29,974 bases of DNA from Propionibacteriaceae bacterium (GCA_043739465.1 JAYUEA010000476.1:1-29974); one strand, 5' to 3'; positions 490 to 23,616 are shown, counted from the stretch's first letter. The notes: a model not told the origin generated them from the letters alone. Program-made: numbers and translations.

Positions 490-573
490 CGGTACGGATC
501 CGGCGAGGGGCCCGTCTCCTCGGATCACCTCGGTCGCCGCCGACGCGCGCGGATGTCGCGTTCTGCTGAGTTG

Positions 574-650
574 CGGGACGAATACGCCAAGCCACGCGCC
601 CTGAGCCCCACAGCCGCGTCATTGAACCGTCGCTCGGCAGATTCCTCCCA
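574..650. repeat. Solitary copy of the 77-78 bp inverted-repeat element
   Basis: Arms CGGGACGAATACGCC (574-588) and GGCAGATTCCTCCCA (636-650) with a 47-nt spacer; near-identical to the arms at 19052-19129 and 20075-20152. Confidence 0.7.
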
Positions 651-814
651 GCCGGCGCGTCAGGACAGCCGCACTACCCGTCACTCCCACGGCGTGAGCA
701 CATCCCTGCCCTGGATCTCGGGCGTCGCCAGCCGCATCTCGGACGCCGTGGTCACGGGAATCCATCCACCGGAAATCACACGGTTGTGTCTTCTTTCCCG
801 ACTCTGGAGCACAG

Positions 815-3180: not shown

Positions 3181-3208
3181 CCTTCGCGAACATCCCTCGT
3201 ACGTCGGC

Positions 3209-3507
3209 GGGAGATCCTGTACCGCTCATGGGGAGATCCTGTACTGCTCGTCGGGAGGTTTCGTACTGCTCTGTGGGAGATCCTGTAGCGCTCATGGGGA
3301 GGTCTCGTGCCCCTCGCGGGGAGATCCCGTACCGCTCGTCGGGAGATCCTGTACTGCTCGTCGGGAGCCACCTATCGAGAGCTACGTCCAGACCCTCCCC
3401 CCGAGCAGTGCCAAACCTCCCCACAAGGAGCACGAGACCTCCCCCCCAGCAGTACAGGACCTAGCGGAGCTGTACAGGACCTCTCCCCGAGCAGCACCAG
3501 ACCTCTC
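3209..3507. repeat. Head-to-head array of 22-bp units (7 direct, about 5-6 inverted)
   Basis: Consensus GGGAGATCCTGTACTGCTCGTC at 3209, 3231, 3253, 3275, 3297, 3319 and 3341. Reverse-complement units at 3400, 3422, 3444, 3466 (20 bp) and 3486, plus a degenerate one near 3377. Confidence 0.9.
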
Positions 3508-17691: not shown

Positions 17692-19026
17692 TCAGCCGCG
17701 ACCGCCGACGCGAGCCAGGAACAACGCCTCGGCGAGCGCGGCCTTGGCGAAGTCGCCGAGGTGAAGGCTCTCGTTGGGGCCGTGCATGCGGGAGTCGGGG
17801 TCGCACACTGCCGTGAGCAGGATGGCCGCGTCCGGGAACTTCCGCTGGAAGTCGGCCGCCATCGGGATCGAGCCACCCTGTCCCATATGGACCGGCGCCA
17901 CCCCGTACGCCTCCGTGAAGGCCTCCGTCGCGGCCTCGGCGATCGGACCTTCGACGGGCAGCACCCCCGGGTCGCCGGCGCTGCCGCGCGTGACCGTGAC
18001 CTTGGCGCCCCACGGGGCGTGGCTCTCGAGGTGGGCGACCAGAGCGTCGAGGGCGTCAGCGGCCCGCTGACCGGGGGCGACCCGGAGGCTGACCTTGGCG
18101 CGCGCGGTCGGGAACAGGGTGTTCGACGCGTCGGCGACGCTGGGCGCGTCGATGCCGATGACGGAGATGGCCGGCTGCGACCAGCCGCGTGAGACGACGG
18201 AGCCCTTGCCGAGGTAGGCGACACCGTCCAGCACCCCGGACTCGGCCCGCAGCCGCTCCTCGGGGTAGACCAGGTCGGAGTCGGGGGCGGTGCCGAGACC
18301 GGCGACGGCCACGCTGCCGTCGTCGTGGTGGAGCGTGGCGAGCAGGCGGCACAGCGAGGTGACCGCGTCGGGCACGATGCCGCCGAACTGTCCGGAGTGG
18401 ATCGCGTGGTCGAGCGTGGCGACCTCGACCACGCAGTCGCAGACGCCGCGCAATGTGGTCGTGAACGCCGGCACGCCGACGTCCCAGTTGCCCGAGTCCG
18501 TGACCACGTACGCGTCCGCGCGGAGCAGCTCCGTGTGTGCGGCGATGATCGCCTGCAGGCTCGGGGAGCCGAACTCCTCCTCGCCCTCGACGAAGACGGT
18601 GACGCCGACGGGAAGGTCGCCGCCGAACGCCCGCAGCGCCGCCAGGTGGACGCCGATGCCGCCCTTGTCGTCGGCCGCGCCACGTCCGTACAGGCGGTCA
18701 CCCTTCTGCGTGGCCTCGAAGCCCGGCGTCTCCCAGACCGTGGCGTCGCCGACAGGCTGGACGTCGTGGTGCGCGTACAGGCAGATCCGCGGCGCTCCGG
18801 GTGGCCCGTCGAAGCGCCCGATCACGGCCGGACGACCACCCTCGGCAACGATCCGTACGTCCGGGCAGCCCAACTCCGTCAGATGGTCCGCGACCGCCTG
18901 CGCCGACGCGTCCACATCGGCGAAGTGCTCGGGCTGCGAGCTCACGGACGGGATCGCCACGAGAGCGATGACGTCGGAGATGGCGCGAGGGATCTGTGCG
19001 GCGACGGCGGCATGAAGGTCGGTCAT
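17692..19026 (-). CDS. M20/M25/M40 family dipeptidase
   Basis: YAHHDVQP, GRGAADDKG, EGEEE, DSG, GGSIP and HGPNE; ATG 7 nt after TAGGTT (19034-19039). Confidence 0.92.
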   Translation of the reverse strand: MTDLHAAVAAQIPRAISDVIALVAIPSVSSQPEHFADVDASAQAVADHLTELGCPDVRIVAEGGRPAVIGRFDGPPGAPRICLYAHHDVQPVGDATVWETPGFEATQKGDRLYGRGAADDKGGIGVHLAALRAFGGDLPVGVTVFVEGEEEFGSPSLQAIIAAHTELLRADAYVVTDSGNWDVGVPAFTTTLRGVCDCVVEVATLDHAIHSGQFGGIVPDAVTSLCRLLATLHHDDGSVAVAGLGTAPDSDLVYPEERLRAESGVLDGVAYLGKGSVVSRGWSQPAISVIGIDAPSVADASNTLFPTARAKVSLRVAPGQRAADALDALVAHLESHAPWGAKVTVTRGSAGDPGVLPVEGPIAEAATEAFTEAYGVAPVHMGQGGSIPMAADFQRKFPDAAILLTAVCDPDSRMHGPNESLHLGDFAKAALAEALFLARVGGRG

Positions 19027-19051
19027 ATGACCCAACCTATCGCCGTCGCCA

Positions 19052-19129
19052 CGGGACGAATCTGCCCGGCGACGGCTCCGGGCCGATGCATTCATGCTCC
19101 CCTGCGCATCTCTTGGCGGATTCGTCCCG
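19052..19129. repeat. 78-bp inverted-repeat element (3' flank of DUF559-like gene 1)
   Basis: CGGGACGAATCTGCC-N48-GGCGGATTCGTCCCG; contains the stop codon of the gene. Confidence 0.8.
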
Positions 19130-19988
19130 CCGGCCTCCGCTGACACGCAGCGAGAGCACGGCGGACCACCGCCACCACATAGCTCGAGTCGTCAAGGTGC
19201 TCCCACCCGAAGCGGGCAACAAGGTAGCCGTGCTCGGCGAAACAGTTCAGCCGCTCTCGATCCTTGAGGAACTGCGACGTGTTGTCGTGGACTTCACGAC
19301 CGTCGAACTCCACGATGACCCGGACCTCCTTGAAGATGATGTCTGGATGGAAGACCTCACCATTCAGGGTGATCGTCGTGTTGGCCTTCCAGCCCGCGAT
19401 GCCCGCGGCGCGGAGGATCCGCTGAAGTCGCAGCTCCGCGTACGACCATGGGTTTGCCATGCATGCCTCGACCACGCATCGTCGCGTGGCCTGACCTGGC
19501 GATCCCGTGAGGGATGCCAAGGCGGCTGGGAGCTCGCTCGGCCTCGCGAGACCGCGTCGGAGGGCCTCGCAGATGGCGCGGCCATCGTCAGTCGCTGCCA
19601 GCTCGACGGCTGCGTAGGCAGGGCTGACGAAGCGGAGACCCTTGGCGACCCGGACGAAGTCTCGTGGAACCTGGTGGCGCCACACCCGCAGGCCTCGCCG
19701 GGATCTGAGCCGAGGATGCGCGAGCTGCGTGGTGCTGACCCCGACCTCCGGCAGCCAGAGGGAAACGGCTGTCTCGGCGTGCAGTGAACCTTCTGCCCCA
19801 GCCCATGCACACACCGCCCGCAGCCACGTGACGTGGGAGGTGTCGGCTGAGGGCACGAAGGTTCCTGGCAACGGTCTCGCAAGAACACCGTCGGCCACGA
19901 GTCGGCTCAGAGTCGTGCGCCAGCTCGGATTGTCGGCCACGGTGACGACGCCACGCTCGGCTAGCTCGTTCGCGATGGAAGGCTTCAC
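19092..19988 (-). CDS. DUF559 / Vsr-like endonuclease-domain protein with an AbiEi-like N-terminal region (paralog 1)
   Basis: NPWSYAELRL, FHPDIIF, VEFDGREVH, KDRERLN and RFGWEHL; GTG 19988 lies 7 nt after CACTGT. Confidence 0.85.
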   Translation of the reverse strand: MKPSIANELAERGVVTVADNPSWRTTLSRLVADGVLARPLPGTFVPSADTSHVTWLRAVCAWAGAEGSLHAETAVSLWLPEVGVSTTQLAHPRLRSRRGLRVWRHQVPRDFVRVAKGLRFVSPAYAAVELAATDDGRAICEALRRGLARPSELPAALASLTGSPGQATRRCVVEACMANPWSYAELRLQRILRAAGIAGWKANTTITLNGEVFHPDIIFKEVRVIVEFDGREVHDNTSQFLKDRERLNCFAEHGYLVARFGWEHLDDSSYVVAVVRRALAACQRRPAGRIRQEMRRGA

Positions 19989-20025
19989 ACCCGGGACAGT
20001 GGGCATCACAGCGCCCATTCGTCAC

Positions 20026-20066
20026 TTGTCCACAAGGAGTCTTGGCACGCCGTTCCCTGTGGACAA
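20026..20066 (-). promoter_or_regulatory. Inverted TTGTCCACA-N23-TGTGGACAA boxes abutting the -35 of DUF559-like gene 1
   Basis: Two perfect TTGTCCACA 9-mers in opposite orientation at 20058-20066 and 20026-20034. Confidence 0.7.
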
Positions 20067-20074
20067 CGCTCCGC

Positions 20075-20152
20075 CGGGACGAATCTGCCAGCCGACGCCC
20101 CCCAACGGCCGAATCGACGGCCCGAGGTTCGTCTGTTGGCGGAATCCTCCCG
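20075..20152. repeat. 78-bp inverted-repeat element (5' flank of DUF559-like gene 1)
   Basis: CGGGACGAATCTGCC-N48-GGCGGAATCCTCCCG; left arm identical to that at 19052 and in the same orientation. Confidence 0.8.
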
Positions 20153-20183
20153 CTAGCGTGCCTGATCTCCTACCGTGGAACCC

Positions 20184-20585
20184 ATGGACACCACGAGCAC
20201 GTTCATCGTCACGGACTTCAGCCCATCGGATCTGGACCTCGACGTGGAGACCGCACTGCCGACGGGGCTCGCGATGATCACGAAGCGGTTCTCCGGGGCG
20301 ATCGAGGGTCACTCGCAGGCGCTGTTCTGCTCGGCGTTCGACCCGACGCACGGCGGCACGTACGTAGCCCTGGAATCCTTCGACGGCCTCGTCGACGGGC
20401 ATCGCGGCACGTTCTCCTTCGCGCACGCCGCGACCACCGGTCCCGCTGGCGGCCGCGAGGACGCCTGGTTCCGCATCGTCTCCGGCTCGGGCACCGGCGA
20501 GCTGGCCGGGATCCACGGTACGGGCGACATCCAGATCGACGACGGCGGCGCGCATCACCTGACGCTCACGTACGAGCTCGGCTGA
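20184..20585 (+). CDS. DUF3224 family protein
   Basis: KRFSGAIEGHS, YVALESFDGLVDGHRGTFSFAH, IVSGSGTGELAGIHGTG and LTYEL; ATG 7 nt after TACCGT. Confidence 0.85.
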   Translation: MDTTSTFIVTDFSPSDLDLDVETALPTGLAMITKRFSGAIEGHSQALFCSAFDPTHGGTYVALESFDGLVDGHRGTFSFAHAATTGPAGGREDAWFRIVSGSGTGELAGIHGTGDIQIDDGGAHHLTLTYELG

Positions 20586-20674
20586 CCTTCTTGGCCCGAC
20601 CCCGGTGACACGGCCGGACAACCTCAGTGCCACGATGCGCGCGTGGGAGTCGTGACCCGCAGCCAAGGCCGTTC

Positions 20675-21889
20675 ATGACCTCGCAGATCGCGCGCTTCCC
20701 GCCTCGGCTGCTCGCCGGCGCCCTCTCGTTCTGCCTGGCGAGCTGCGCGATCGCCCCTCCGCCGACGAATCCGCAGCCAACCACCACATCCTCCGCTTCT
20801 CCTGGTGTCACTGCGACCACCAGTGCTCCGCCGACGCCGACGCCGACACCCACCCCAGCCCCAACCCGTACGGCCACCGTCGTCATGAACGGCGACCTGC
20901 TGTGGCACAACACGGTCTACCGGAGCGCCCAGCCGGAGGCACGGCGCACCGGCAAGGGGACCGACTTGGTTCGACGTCGACCCCATGTTCGCGGCCCTGA
21001 AGCCCGTCATCTCGGGCGCCGACGTCGCGATCGGCCAGGAGGAGGTGCCGTTCTCCGCGCCGGGCGGGCCGAACCTGGGCTACCCCGTGCTCGCCGCTCC
21101 ACCGCAGATCGCCGCATGGCTGGGAAGCATGGGTACGACACGTGCACGACCGACTCCAACCACGCCATCGACCAGGGCTTCACAGGACTGGTCCGTACAG
21201 CCACCCTCCTCGACCAGGCCGGCGTCCGCCACATCGGTATGATCCGCACCGCGCAGGAGCGTGCGAAGCCGGTCATCGTCCAGACCGCGTCCGGCGTGAA
21301 GGTCGGCAACGTAGAGGCAGGTACTCGCTCAACGGCATCACACTGCCGTCCGACAAGCAGTGGGCCGTCTCGTTGTGGGACGCGCCCAACCTCCTCGCGC
21401 AGGCGCACACCGCTCGCCTGGCCGGCGCGGACATCGTTGTCGTACAGGTCCACGGCAGTGAGGAGTACCAGGCGCGGCCCACCGCCGAGCGACAGGCACT
21501 CGCGGCCGCGCTCACCGCCTCCGACGACGTCGACCTGGTCTTCGGCGAGCACGTACATGTCGTACAGCCCGTCACGAAGGTCAACGGGACGCGGGTCGTG
21601 TACGGGATGGGCAACCTCGTCGCGCAGCAGGTGACCAGGCAGCCGCGCACGTACGAGGGCATGACCATGCGGTTCACGTTCACCGGCACCCTCGGCGGCC
21701 GCTATGCCGTGACGAAGGCCGGGTACATCGGCACGCTCAATCACCTACTGCGACCCGATCCGCGTCTACTCCGTGCTCTCGTCGCTCGCGTCCGGCGCCG
21801 GACCCACGGCCCGCTTCCAGACAGTGCGCACCGCCATCGCCTCCTCCGTGAACCTCCTGGGAGCGGCGCCCGGCCTCGTCGAGGCGTGA
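20675..21889 (+). pseudogene. CapA family (metallophosphoesterase-fold) lipoprotein, multiply frameshifted
   Basis: Lipobox LASC; NGDLLWH, then at least four frame changes through ISGADVAI, DSNHAIDQG, YSLNG, VHGSEEY, GEHVHVVQP and YGMGNL; final frame ends ...GAAPGLVEA* at 21889. Confidence 0.8.
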
Positions 21890-21914
21890 CTGATCGGGAC
21901 CGAGCCTGAGTTGG

Positions 21915-21992
21915 CGCCGGATCTCCGCCAGGATCACCCCCCGAGGCCCTCGGCAATCCCTTGCCACGCTCGATCCTGGCGGATTCAGGGCA
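21915..21992. repeat. 78-bp inverted-repeat element, variant (5' flank of DUF559-like gene 2)
   Basis: TCCGCCAGGATC (21924-21935) / GATCCTGGCGGA (21972-21983); GCC-to-GGC spacing is again 48 nt; shares TGGCGGATTC with the other copies. Confidence 0.65.
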
Positions 21993-21995
21993 GGA

Positions 21996-22066
21996 CGGTC
22001 CACAGGCGGAAGCCTTCACCCCCGTGCTGTGGACAACTGACCGTTGGAGGCGTCGGCGCACACTGT
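21996..22066 (+). promoter_or_regulatory. Promoter of DUF559-like gene 2: GTCCACA-N23-TGTGGACAA boxes, CTGACC -35, CACTGT -10
   Basis: Same spacings (23, 24 and 7 nt) as upstream of paralog 1. Confidence 0.7.
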
Positions 22067-22073
22067 CCAGGGT

Positions 22074-22949
22074 GTGAACCGCACCGTTGCCGCCCTGCTC
22101 GCCGATCACGGCGTGATCTCCCTCTCGAAGCACCCCGGCTTGAGCCGGACCCTGCGCCGCCTCGTTCGTGATGGGACACTCGCTCTCCCTCTGCCGGGCA
22201 CCTTCATCCTGACCGCGTCCGGATACGGAGGGTGGTTGCGCGCCGTGACGGCGTGGGCCGGGAGGGACGGAGCGCTGCACGGTGCGACAGCCGCCAACCT
22301 CTGGTTGGGCGACTCTCGACCCTCCGTCACCCAGCTAGCTCACCCCAGCTTGCGCTCGCGAAGCAGCGTCTCGGTGTGGCGATATGCCATCGAGCCACAG
22401 TTCGTCGTGGCCCGAGACGGTATACGCACGGTCAACGCGGCGTACGCGTCGGTCGAGTTGGCCGCGAGCGACGACGGCCGCGCGCTCACCGAGGCAATGC
22501 GGCGCCGACTGGCCACGGTGGACGAGATCCGCGAGATCCTGGACAGCCTCGCCGGCACCTCGGGCCAGGCAGTTCGGCGCTGCGTGGTCGAGTCCTGCCT
22601 GTCGAACCCCTGGTCCTATGCCGAGCTCCGCCTCCACCGCATCCTTCGACGCGCCGGGATCACCGGGTGGGTGGGCAACGTACCTCTCCGAGTCGGGGGT
22701 CAGGTGCTCCAACCGGATGTGCTGTTTCCGGTCGCCAAGATCGTCATCGAGTTCGATGGCCGCGCCTTCCATTCATCGCGGACAGAGTTCATCGAGGATC
22801 GCGAGAAGCAGAACACCTACATCACCAACGGTTACCTCGTACTCCGCTTCGCCTGGCACCACCTGGACGACCCGGACTACGTGATAGCCATGGTGCGGAG
22901 GGCGCTGGCGGTGCGGGTGCCCGTATCCCGCCAAGATCCCGACTCTTAA
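22074..22949 (+). CDS. DUF559 / Vsr-like endonuclease-domain protein (paralog 2)
   Basis: NPWSYAELRL, LQPDVLF, IEFDGRAFH, EDREKQN and RFAWHHL; roughly 50% identical to paralog 1 in segments aligned by eye. Confidence 0.85.
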   Translation: MNRTVAALLADHGVISLSKHPGLSRTLRRLVRDGTLALPLPGTFILTASGYGGWLRAVTAWAGRDGALHGATAANLWLGDSRPSVTQLAHPSLRSRSSVSVWRYAIEPQFVVARDGIRTVNAAYASVELAASDDGRALTEAMRRRLATVDEIREILDSLAGTSGQAVRRCVVESCLSNPWSYAELRLHRILRRAGITGWVGNVPLRVGGQVLQPDVLFPVAKIVIEFDGRAFHSSRTEFIEDREKQNTYITNGYLVLRFAWHHLDDPDYVIAMVRRALAVRVPVSRQDPDS

Positions 22950-22995
22950 CCCCAGATGCACGGCTCTGCAACCGAATCGTGGCAGGAAACAGGCC
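22918..22995. repeat. 78-bp inverted-repeat element, variant (3' flank of DUF559-like gene 2)
   Basis: TGCCCGTATCCCGCC-N48-GGCAGGAAACAGGCC (11/15 complementary); contains the stop codon of the gene. Confidence 0.55.
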
Positions 22996-23001
22996 CGGAG
23001 C

Positions 23002-23616
23002 CTAGATGAACATCGTCTGCGCGTTCTCGCTGAGCTCCATGAAGTCCGTGGCGCTGATGACGCCCTGCACGGCCGGGTGGAAGTCGGCCTCGATCATCTT
23101 CATCATGTCGAAGGACATCCGGCAGGCCCACATCTTGACACCCGCGGCCTCGAGCAGGTCGAGGAATTCCGGCACTGTCGGCACGCCGAGATCAGCGATC
23201 TGCTTGTGCATCATGTTGGTCGCGATCTTCGTCATGAAGGGGATCCGGCCCATCCACTGCGGCATCGACCAGTGCTCGAGACCAGGCTTGACGCTGCCGA
23301 GCTCGGGCATGTGCATGGCGGTGTTGCCGACCAACGTGAACTGCAGGTTGCCAGAAGTCTTCTTGTTGATGATGTCGAGGCCCCAGAACGTGAAGAAGAT
23401 GTGGACCTCGATGCCCTCGCCCGCGGCAGCGTTGGCGAGGATCAGACCGGGGTACGCCATGTCCAGGTTGCCCTTGGAGCAGACCAGGACGAGCTTCCGC
23501 GGGCCGGAGTAGCCACCGCCAACGCTGGACGCCGCCGTCTCAGTGCCGGCGTCGGCCGCCTTGACCGCAGACCCCCCGAAGTTCGGAAGGATGAAACCGT
23601 CAGGAATCGTAAGCAT
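23002..23616 (-). CDS. DsrE/DsrF/DrsH-like (DsrE2-type) sulfur relay protein
   Basis: SKGNLDMAYPGLILANAA, IFFTFWGLD and WACRMS; AAGGAG RBS. Confidence 0.88.
   Translation of the reverse strand: MLTIPDGFILPNFGGSAVKAADAGTETAASSVGGGYSGPRKLVLVCSKGNLDMAYPGLILANAAAGEGIEVHIFFTFWGLDIINKKTSGNLQFTLVGNTAMHMPELGSVKPGLEHWSMPQWMGRIPFMTKIATNMMHKQIADLGVPTVPEFLDLLEAAGVKMWACRMSFDMMKMIEADFHPAVQGVISATDFMELSENAQTMFI

Follow-up and report, generated by a model that had tools for sequence, protein, structure and literature searches.

The window analysed here (the whole stretch of 29,974 nucleotides) carries two DUF559 genes, p1 and p2, and direct reading of the sequence places one palindrome of about 78 bp upstream and one downstream of each. 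This arrangement raises the question of whether gene and palindrome form a single unit that propagates its own repeat, as an earlier note on this DNA proposed, or have come to lie together for other reasons. We found no published description of such a DUF559 gene-palindrome pairing in the literature. The reading that we prefer, at a probability of roughly 0.4, is a repeat-nuclease partnership resembling that of REPINs and RAYTs, or a selfish cassette, in which the DUF559 protein would cut as directed by the palindrome and the repeat would spread through repair.

Two cassettes and their framing elements

The features of the window are as follows.

574-650, unstranded: orphan type-A element, between convergent genes
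19052-19129, unstranded: element 1, type-A palindrome, 3' of p1
19092-20018, minus strand: DUF559 gene p1 (Pfam PF04480), ORF of 308 aa, likely start GTG at 19988
20025-20065, minus strand: p1 leader/promoter region with inverted DnaA-box-like motifs, read from the sequence
20075-20152, unstranded: element 2, type-A palindrome, 5' of p1
21915-21992, unstranded: element 3, type-H-like palindrome with degenerate outer arms, 5' of p2
21998-22036, plus strand: p2 leader
22044-22949, plus strand: DUF559 gene p2, paralog of p1, ORF of 301 aa, likely start GTG at 22074
22918-22995, unstranded: element 4, degenerate type-H-like palindrome, 3' of p2

All four framing elements exhibit GCC...GGC cores exactly 48 nt apart, and the stop codon of each gene lies inside its downstream element (19092-19094 for p1, 22947-22949 for p2); the earlier note had described both features correctly. 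It had also reported a shared left arm for the two elements of cassette 1, and this arm is indeed identical in sequence. The arms of element 1 (CGGGACGAATCTGCC and GGCGGATTCGTCCCG, 48-nt spacer) are complementary at 14/15 positions plus one T.G pair, and the right arm of element 2 (GGCGGAATCCTCCCG, 48-nt spacer) at 12/15. A type-A element of 78 bp consists of two half-sites of about 25 nt and a variable centre of about 28 nt. Folding energies were compared with those of shuffled sequences on both strands. The resulting z scores (-3.6 and -3.2 for element 1, -4.3 and -3.3 for element 2) place the hairpins of cassette 1 clearly beyond chance. Covariance model R1 recovers both elements (E-value = 2.9e-14 and 1e-15, respectively).

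The palindromes of cassette 2 are degenerate. In the 15-bp-arm register the arms of element 3 (CGCCGGATCTCCGCC and GGCGGATTCAGGGCA) are complementary at only 9/15 positions; the element holds a perfect inner inverted repeat of 11 bp (CCGCCAGGATC and GATCCTGGCGG), its fold z scores are -0.4 and -0.6, and it matches the type-H family of G004, the closest relative of this genome. The arms of element 4 (TGCCCGTATCCCGCC and GGCAGGAAACAGGCC) are complementary at 11/15 positions, with plus-strand and minus-strand z scores of +0.3 and -2.3. Elements 3 and 4 are missed by both the HMM and the covariance model built for the cassette-1 type. These two elements are the left and right ends of a segment missing from genomes G003 and G007; the lack of a target-site duplication, noted earlier, extends to the junctions of this segment.

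Stable hairpins could also indicate that the elements act as RNA, namely as a small RNA, a leader or a 3'-UTR stabiliser, their proximity to DUF559 genes reflecting transcript processing. The inner stem exhibits some change on both sides, with a covariation score of 0.156 against 0.109 in shuffles, a value reached by 1/500 shuffles. We nevertheless consider this explanation very improbable. The elements match no Rfam family, they look alike on both strands, and their mismatches exhibit no one-strand G.U bias. At the two arm positions that vary most, the bases mostly do not pair (11/19 and 6/19 copies), the centre is unconserved, and copies between convergent genes occur in either orientation.

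A winged-helix region fused to a Vsr-like nuclease

Both ORFs pass the Pfam PF04480 (DUF559) cut-off of 20.6 bits (25.5 bits for p1, 21.5 bits for p2) and are 53.5% identical to each other. Homolog consensus places the start of p1 near residue 11. The AlphaFold2 model of the p1 protein (pLDDT 92.8), searched with Foldseek, matches the structures 6y8q, 1zel, 3r3p, 1cw0 and 1vsr. Its N-terminal part (about residues 1-190), an AbiEi-like winged-helix region, resembles AbiEi (6y8q, E-value = 3e-4, probability 1.0) and Rv2827c (1zel, E-value = 2.5e-3); the Pfam AbiEi_4 match is weak (E-value = 0.016) and under its cut-off. The C-terminal part (about residues 190-290) resembles I-Bth0305I (3r3p, TM 0.77 over the solved domain) and Vsr (1cw0, 1vsr), in agreement with the Vsr-like identity suggested earlier. 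Residues P225-D226, E237-F238-D239-G240, H244, D253, R254 and N258 vary little or not at all among 46 homologs; one of these is p2, which retains every invariant column of alignment A2. From the model, the protein can be confidently predicted to join a winged-helix DNA binder of the AbiEi type to a nuclease of the Vsr/I-Bth0305I (EDxHD) type.

Each DUF559 gene type is single-copy. Both p1 and p2 are free-standing in intergenic DNA, not within a self-splicing intron or an intein, and their neighbours encode an M20 peptidase, a DUF3224 protein, a broken PGA_cap protein and DsrE. Pfam revealed no transposase domain within the cassette, and the Y1/RAYT transposase family (PF01797) has no match in this genome (G000), G004, G007 or G010.

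The p1 leader carries TTGTCCACA at 20025-20033 and TGTGGACAA at 20057-20065, and the p2 leader carries GTCCACAG at 21998-22005 and CTGTGGACAA at 22027-22036. A DnaA-box-like leader motif precedes most DUF559 genes of the genus, and T[GA]TCCACAG has 59 occurrences in the genome where about 21 would be expected. Since p1-family members with different arms have a well-conserved winged-helix region, this region may recognise the conserved GTCCACAG motif instead of the arms.

The AbiEi-like domain suggests another explanation, in which the arms are its operators, the upstream ones for autorepression and the downstream ones for termination or looping. The gene would then be a repair, defence or toxin-like nuclease, and the gene-less copies described below would be extra regulatory or decoy sites, or terminators adopted by the host. 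AbiEi and Rv2827c control their own expression by way of inverted repeats in their promoters (PMC7319586), the upstream element lies 100-150 nt ahead of the start in most genes, and the elements stand at the ends of genes, a position in which a hairpin can act as a terminator. This explanation is unlikely in our view, since it accounts neither for the same palindrome at the 3' end with the stop codon inside, nor for the presence or absence of whole cassettes at orthologous sites, nor for decay remnants and at least 20 orphans behind unrelated genes. No AbiEii (DUF1814) toxin partner gene lies beside p1 or p2.

Matching flanks at DUF559 genes

Matching flanks are a general pattern across the genus and not local to these two genes. 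In 18/30 DUF559 genes of the genus, the best match of the upstream flank is the gene's own downstream flank (permutation p<1e-4). The enrichment of elements at DUF559 genes that the earlier note anticipated is evident from the flank-match score, which reaches 16 or more in 14/30 of these genes against 3/412 control genes (0.7%). Its proposal that the repeat subtype goes with the gene agrees with the paralog-specific arms of p1 and p2 and with the CCGGAWWTCCGCCAGGATYC arms that the cassette-2 ortholog of G004 shares; the co-phylogeny test of protein against arm suffers from two confounders, shared ancestry and the 45 nt of coding sequence that the flank contains. The other DUF559 genes of the genome each have a repeat type of their own as well. 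About ten types coexist in one genome, each gene carrying the same type on both sides without mixing. In other actinobacterial families the own flank ranks first for 7/20 DUF559 genes, and homologs of p1 at non-syntenic loci in other genera likewise have their own flanking repeat type. The flanks of the G070 gene are direct repeats with the loop included.

The two cassettes are only 1.8 kb apart and their genes are paralogous, as would be expected if one ancient tandem duplication had copied a gene situated by chance between two copies of a common repeat. Such a local coincidence is extremely improbable, given that the same framing, with different arms, recurs at about 30 further DUF559 loci spread over other contigs, genomes and families, against the control rate of 0.7%, and that the two cassettes have been gained or lost independently of each other across species.

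Gene-less copies

Type A, the type of cassette 1, occupies about 22 loci in this genome, about 20 of them orphans; these counts are lower bounds, because the assembly is 84% complete in 575 contigs. All are intergenic, mostly directly behind stop codons and often only 0-10 nt away. This genome combines an intact p1 and its type-A loci with a degenerate p2 frame and about 5 weak type-H loci. G004 has 2-3 type-A copies, about 16 type-H loci (about 14 of them orphans) and an intact p2 ortholog whose flanks are of type H. The copy numbers of the two types are thus swapped between the two genomes, following which cassette is intact, in a cross-genome pattern that is confounded by its derivation from mutual closest relatives and by the fast divergence of the repeats. 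Type C has more than 10 loci; its arms number 26, 36 and 9 in the three genomes carrying a gene flanked by type C, and at most 11 elsewhere, including 4-11 in G010, G003 and G011, where no cognate gene was detectable. In G001 and G007 the p1 orthologs are flanked by another arm type, of which there are almost no orphans, so that proliferation is not a constant feature.

The earlier note had counted a fifth copy of the element, and it is real: the orphan at 574-650 was recovered by the HMM and by covariance model R1 (E-value = 3.8e-12). It lies in an insertion of about 367 bp found in this genome only, other species having 7-48 bp at this place. Positions 565-754 of the window are a 79% copy of positions 1004-1195 of contig C496. 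The orphan (575-649) came within a segmental copy, in which about 100 nt from the 3' end of a neighbour gene are also included, and no target-site duplication was found at this insertion.

Other repeats are also abundant in this genome, among them 22-bp arrays and a family of 170 bp present in 80 contigs or more.

Presence, absence and decay at orthologous sites

The comparison of orthologous loci proposed in the earlier note revealed empty sites for both cassettes. Cassette 2 is missing as a whole from G003 and G007, with a spacer of 40-51 nt in its place. Cassette 1 is missing from G003, G004 and G010, and the empty site of G004 holds one hybrid element. An 88-bp remnant of cassette 1 was found in G011, and a frameshifted copy in L004. 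One orthologous intergenic site carries type A here, type H in G004 and GACGCGATTTGCCC arms in G007, the last resembling the arms of G007's own p1 cassette. Behind convergent genes, the repeat type of an intergenic site differs from species to species, whether or not a DUF559 gene is present.

These sites bear on the explanation that DUF559 genes are passengers at a hot spot. The repeats would be generic intergenic ones, terminator-like or MITE-like, spread by host recombination, replication slippage or some other enzyme; selfish or defence-type DUF559 genes would land there, and the nuclease would not recognise the repeat. Matching flanks would result when a gene inserts next to or within one element and thereby duplicates it; the direct-repeat flanks of G070 look as such a duplication of a pre-existing element would predict. 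The species-dependent repeat type behind convergent genes is compatible with this, as are the richness of the genome in other repeats (the 170-bp family in at least 80 contigs and the 22-bp arrays), the persistence of orphans without a cognate gene in G010, G003 and G011, and the segmental origin of one orphan. We regard this explanation as doubtful. It has to contend with about ten repeat types per genome and yet the same type on both sides of each gene, with type-A and type-H counts that swap between sister genomes along with the intact cassette, and with a protein whose DNA-binding region belongs to a family that binds inverted repeats (PMC7319586).

A proposed mechanism

The repeat-propagating nuclease-repeat unit of the earlier note is partly supported, by the enrichment, the gene-specific arms and the empty sites. 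Clean transposition fits poorly, because of the segmental copy at 575-649, the nearly orphan-free arms of G001 and G007, and the type-C repeats without a cognate gene. In the repeat-nuclease partnership that we prefer, the unit is a cassette of about 1.1 kb: a palindrome, a leader with GTCCACAG motifs, a single-copy DUF559 gene and a second palindrome. The bounding palindromes of about 78 bp have arms specific to the gene lineage, the same type also standing gene-less in intergenic DNA. The protein, probably a dimer, would recognise two inverted half-sites of about 25 bp at a fixed spacing of about 48 nt, and its nuclease would nick or cut at or near the palindrome, whether this is a duplex or an extruded hairpin. 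The break could then be repaired in a way that copies the cassette, the palindrome alone, or the palindrome and some flanking DNA, with copies landing in terminator sites or in other sites that resemble the palindrome. If the two flanking copies recombined, the gene would be deleted and a solo element would remain. Precedents exist for some of these steps: AbiEi-family proteins bind inverted repeats (PMC7319586), and I-Bth0305I is reported to be a homodimer with a footprint of about 60 bp (PMC3239194).

Comparison with known systems

Vsr is a single-domain repair enzyme of about 155 aa linked to Dcm methylation. This very-short-patch repair endonuclease (1cw0, 1vsr) shares the nuclease fold and probably the motif set PD...ExDG..H with the DUF559 proteins, but unlike p1 and p2 it has neither a repeat frame nor an N-terminal DNA-binding region. 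IS elements and MITEs with terminal inverted repeats differ from the cassettes described here, which lack a transposase domain and show no target-site duplication, neither where cassette 2 joins its surroundings nor at the 575-649 insertion.

The type IV antitoxins AbiEi and Rv2827c (6y8q, 1zel; PMC7319586) share the two-domain AbiEi fold of the N-terminal 190 residues or so, and members of their family bind inverted repeats near their own gene. Unlike in AbiEi systems, the AbiEii/DUF1814 partner is lacking here, a nuclease domain is fused, and the repeats occur at both gene ends and dispersed.

I-Bth0305I, an EDxHD homing endonuclease (PDB 3r3p; PMC3239194), is similar in its nuclease fold (TM 0.77 over the solved domain) and in its multidomain build with a separate DNA-binding part, and would also be similar in its long pseudo-palindromic target and its selfish life cycle of invasion and decay. 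It is located within a group I intron of a phage and has one gene as its target, whereas the DUF559 genes are free-standing and intergenic, are framed by complete palindromes with gene-less target-like copies dispersed, and encode an unrelated N-terminal region.

By analogy, the system can be called REPIN/RAYT-like in its logic and unrelated in its enzyme. As in the REP/REPIN-RAYT systems (REPtrons) of Proteobacteria (PMC3116915, PMC3337134, bioRxiv 10.1101/2022.05.22.493013), the enzyme is encoded by a single-copy gene with its own palindromic repeat on either side, the repeat unit consists of two inverted arms and a spacer with tens of gene-less extragenic copies, and several gene-repeat pairs per genome, each with its own repeat, are inherited mostly vertically with loss. 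In contrast, the enzyme is an AbiEi-like winged helix with a Vsr-like PD-(D/E)xK nuclease instead of a Y1/HUH transposase. The element is 78 bp long with half-sites of about 25 bp and a fixed spacer, and has no GTAG-type REP head; the short REP hairpin (about 20-40 nt), whose conserved 5' tetranucleotide is recognised in single-stranded form, is not seen here. The host is a high-GC actinobacterium, and whole cassettes are present or absent at orthologous sites. Roughly ten parallel gene-repeat pairs with empty sites occur across the whole genus, and the proteins here carry the AbiEi-like region. Apart from the arm type of G001 and G007, the gene-less copies that characterise a REPtron were found for types A, H and C.

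Two DUF559 genes between palindromic elements

The window, contig C476, belongs to a fragmented assembly (2.49 Mb in 575 contigs, 68.6% GC, 84% complete), and the genomes related to it are Propionibacteriaceae/Propionicimonas-like MAGs. Two genes in the window, p1 and p2 (53.5% identical), pass the Pfam threshold for DUF559, and each forms a cassette with its two flanking palindromic elements.

Features of the two cassettes
19092-20018, minus strand: p1, DUF559 gene of cassette 1 (Pfam threshold passed)
22044-22949, plus strand: p2, DUF559 gene of cassette 2 (Pfam threshold passed)
19052-19129 and 20075-20152: elements 1 and 2, flanking p1
21915-21992 and 22918-22995: elements 3 and 4, flanking p2

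Direct reading of the sequence places the four elements where the earlier note had put them. Its further statements also hold that the stop codon of either gene lies inside the downstream element, that the left arm CGGGACGAATCTGCC is identical in elements 1 and 2, and that elements 3 and 4 retain the GCC...GGC core with the same 48-nt spacing. Its claim of 15-bp arms throughout stands for cassette 1, in which the right arms of elements 1 and 2 are complementary to the left arm at 14/15 and 12/15 positions across 48 nt, but elements 3 and 4 pair at merely 9/15 and 11/15 in this register. The inner 11-bp inverted repeat of element 3 is perfect. By folding energy, elements 1 and 2 have z-scores between -3.2 and -4.3; the fold of element 3 is not significant, and for element 4 significance is confined to the minus strand. 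Judged by homolog alignments, translation of p1 actually begins at GTG 19988 and that of p2 at GTG 22074. An Rfam scan of the whole window (E<=1) returned three tRNAs alone, with no match at the elements, and NCBIfam assigned no family to p1 or p2. No sigma-70 promoter or intrinsic terminator was found in 18950-23100 with simple models, which are uninformative for a 69% GC actinobacterium.

Between the cassettes, at 20627-21909, lies a PGA_cap/CapA-like gene split over at least two reading frames, with Pfam PGA_cap profile positions 73-143 in one ORF and 160-255 in another. Either the gene has decayed to a pseudogene or the MAG is misassembled here. The gene is absent together with cassette 2 in the comparison genomes G001 and G008.

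Predicted structure of the protein

AlphaFold2 modelled p1 with a pLDDT of 92.8 when 46 homologs were supplied, and of 36 from the single sequence. In Foldseek searches with the predicted model, residues ~1-190 match the AbiEi antitoxin (6y8q) and Rv2827c (1zel), and the C-terminal ~100 residues match the catalytic domain of the homing endonuclease I-Bth0305I (3r3p, TM 0.77) and Vsr. AbiEi-family proteins bind inverted repeats (PMC7319586), and the Vsr-like homing endonucleases have I-Bth0305I as their prototype (PMC3239194). The nuclease fold is common to p1 and the EDxHD homing endonucleases, but the intron/intein setting of the latter is not. An AbiE toxin-antitoxin pair was ruled out, as no AbiEii toxin gene lies nearby.

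Type A as a dispersed repeat family

The repeat of cassette 1 (type A) occurs at about 22 loci of the source genome, G000, according to searches with the arms, with an HMM and with the covariance model R1, for which 19 copies were used. Its consensus is GGGASGAWTCYGCCA-N3-GAYG, about 28 variable nt and CRTC-N3-TGGCRGAWTCSTCCC, with a length of 77-78 bp. Stem cells pair in 81% of cases versus 31-47% with the partner slid; the inner stem shows modest two-sided change, and two arm positions are mostly non-pairing. The fixed spacing and free centre suit a dimer reading two half-sites, and the inner stem has stayed palindromic, which hints at a role for hairpin or cruciform forms as well. All copies are intergenic, many of them between convergent genes or 0-10 nt from a stop codon. 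Only 2 of the 22 flank a DUF559 gene, which, taken alone, would read as coincidence. A generic-core search of G000 returned type A only, and a 12-mer repeat map flagged 83% of the bases of the genome because of GC bias.

Gene-specific frames of other DUF559 genes

All the other DUF559 genes of G000 (on contigs C441, C520, C416, C503, C538 and C430) each lie between copies of a different palindromic repeat, for instance GAACCGCCACGTTGCC, CACCAATTGCCTGTCGG and GAGCCGGATTCTGGTCG, and most of them carry the motif GTT(G/A)TCCACAG before the start. The 15 genomes of the genus have 1-8 DUF559 genes each. Among these, 30 genes had sufficient flanking sequence, and they show hairpins 100-150 nt upstream as well as at the stop codon, the arms being shared by both flanks. 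A gene's own downstream flank was the best partner of its upstream flank in 18 of these 30 (permutation p<1e-4), the chance of ranking first being 1 in 30 per gene. The enrichment of repeats at DUF559 genes for which the earlier note proposed a test is equally visible in the scores, which reach 16 or more in 14/30 genus genes versus 3/412 ordinary G000 genes. Chance as the cause of the matching flanks is ruled out by these two comparisons. In a sample across the class, the own flank ranked first in 7 of 20 genes, and homologs of p1 in other genera, at unrelated loci, have the same frame, yet other arms.

The proposed co-evolution of repeat subtype and nuclease is partly supported. By eye, the arm sets sort with the three protein subfamilies (...GAATCCGCC..., ...GTTTTCG... 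and ...ACGTTGCC...), but the positive Mantel-type correlation (rho 0.32) of protein with downstream-flank similarity was set aside, because it is confounded both by orthology and by the 45 coding nt that the flank contains.

Two control genes of G000, C446:1752-2802 and C39:5081-6431, score 60 and 39 in the flank comparison, a very strong match, which probably marks them as IS elements or as cassettes of another kind bounded by long terminal repeats. In another actinobacterial genus, two species carry a DUF559 gene at the same locus (L093, G070:C1; L100, G109:C6) within completely different palindromes, which parallels the p1 orthologs of the present genus. Repeat types B and D of G000 have four arms, two in one orientation followed by two inverted ones, at a strict ~51-nt period, unlike the two-arm types A (62-63 nt) and C (55-56 nt).

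Four-arm elements of types B and D in G000
C441:6094-6264
C416:1284-1446
C417:5450-5612
C239:2962-3130

Presence and turnover at orthologous sites

If the cassettes are mobile, as the earlier note considers, empty sites are expected, and DNA comparison across the genus found them for both. Cassette 1 is present in G001, G002, G006, G007 and G008 and absent in G003, G004 and G010; relics are an 88-bp remnant in G011 and a frameshifted copy at locus L004. Cassette 2 is present in G004, the closest relative, and missing as a unit in G003 and G007, in which 40-51 nt separate the two convergent genes. What G000 has in addition (~21914-23001) runs from palindrome to palindrome, and, as reported before, no target-site duplication accompanies it. 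An orphan (gene-less) type-A copy at 575-649 lies within a 367-bp insertion unique to G000, where other species have 7-48 bp. An IS or MITE with target duplication was ruled out, none being seen at the cassette-2 junctions or at this insertion. Window positions 565-754 are a 79% copy of C496:1004-1195 and include the 3' end of a neighbour gene, which makes copying in the course of repair or recombination likelier than a clean transposition.

The C496 site holds type A in G000, type H (the repeat of the G004 cassette 2) in G004 and, in G007, arms like those of that genome's own cassette. The C109 site holds a DUF559 cassette in G003 and other repeat types in G004 and G007. Both intergenic sites turn over quickly. 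Orthologous-site comparison of the C26 and C109 orphans met several-kb rearrangements and no clean empty site. The DUF559-gene/palindrome architecture is real, recurrent and polymorphic.

Repeat abundance and the cognate gene

Beyond G000, R1 matched about 13 loci in G004, one in G003, one in G007 and two in G011, with two weak matches in G029 (E 5.5e-5 and 1.7e-3) and none in the other 35 genomes searched. Read singly, 9-10 of the G004 matches belong to the sister type H (CCGGAWWTCCGCCAGGATYC), exactly the type that frames the cassette-2 ortholog of that genome, and only two to type A. The type-H pattern has 30 arms (~16 loci) in G004, 10 in G000 (the degenerate frame of p2 and about five weak loci) and background counts in the other 13 genomes. 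The p1 gene is absent in G004, which has a single hybrid element at the orthologous site. The contrast of types A and H between G000 and G004 thus runs in opposite directions, according to the intact cassette, and this reciprocity favours a partnership of gene and repeat.

Type C, whose gene in G000 is on contig C520, is at its commonest (26, 36 and 9 arms) where a gene within its frame is present, in three genomes. Genomes with no detectable cognate gene have 11, 5 and 4 arms. Type B behaves similarly. Such repeats without their gene, type C in G010 for instance, are in part a weakness of the functional reading. The cross-genome counts are biased to close relatives of the genomes that supplied the patterns, nor can related genomes be treated as independent. 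A pattern search with the arm type of the G001/G007 p1 orthologs found essentially only the cassette's own copies and almost no orphans, so this type gives no orphan test.

Interpretation and relation to known systems

The best-supported reading of these sequence comparisons, with a probability of roughly 0.4, is that the DUF559 nuclease may act on its repeats. Slightly more doubtful is the wider proposal that actinobacterial DUF559 proteins of ~300 aa, which join an AbiEi-like binder to a Vsr-like nuclease, create, move or homogenise whole families of intergenic palindromes, each paralog having its own repeat "species". They would then form a second system of REPIN/RAYT type, evolved independently and based on a nuclease and not a transposase. 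The likeness to REPIN/RAYT lies in a single-copy gene that stands between inverted-arm repeats of its own, in the dispersal of copies that lack the gene, and in the coexistence of several such pairs in one genome. The DUF559 system nevertheless fails the defining enzyme test: no Y1/RAYT transposase was found in four genomes, and a classical RAYT is thereby ruled out.

A full-text literature search found no published description of DUF559 with palindromic repeats or AbiEi. The nearest statement is one table row in which DUF559 proteins figure as enriched among predicted inversion targets (PMC9881135). Programmed inversion of the DUF559 gene between its inverted arms is unlikely to matter here, because the leader lies inside the cassette.

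DUF559 is a very large family to which, to our knowledge, no function has been assigned, and we know of no enzyme partner for the intergenic palindromic repeats of high-GC Gram-positives; a functional pairing would explain both. It would also mean that the lifestyle of a repeat with a single-copy enzyme evolved at least twice with unrelated chemistries, and would reveal where many assembly-breaking repeats of actinobacterial genomes come from. About ten natural nuclease/~50-bp-site pairs per genome would then provide a panel for studying the divergence of long-site specificity. Under the wider proposal, long bipartite sites would diversify quickly, making the proteins naturally re-targetable sequence-specific nucleases.

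Leader motif and neighbouring repeats

The actinobacterial DnaA-box-like sequence T[GA]TCCACAG (leader motif GTCCACAG) occurs 59 times in the genome, whereas base composition predicts ~21. Nine of the copies are at the starts of DUF559 genes, the window sites being 20025-20065 and 21998-22036. These could be operators, promoter elements or true DnaA boxes. Pairs of the motif spaced by 20-30 nt are also present on contigs C156, C184, C257, C440, C462, C469 and C477. The minus-strand ORF C462:1331-2216 (~295 aa) has a paired TGTCCACAG motif upstream and a flank similarity of 15, and may be a divergent relative missed by the DUF559 profile.

At least 80 contigs of G000 carry a MITE-like repeat of ~170 bp, whose terminal inverted repeats measure ~22 bp and whose copies are 87-96% alike. 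It lies downstream of two DUF559 genes and is unrelated to their hairpins.

Examples of the MITE-like repeat in G000
C441:4684-4852
C357:1616-1787

The 22-bp unit (GGGAGATCCTGTAC...) of the palindromic array at window positions 3187-3507 recurs as two tandem copies directly beside a type-A orphan at C109:2800-2850.
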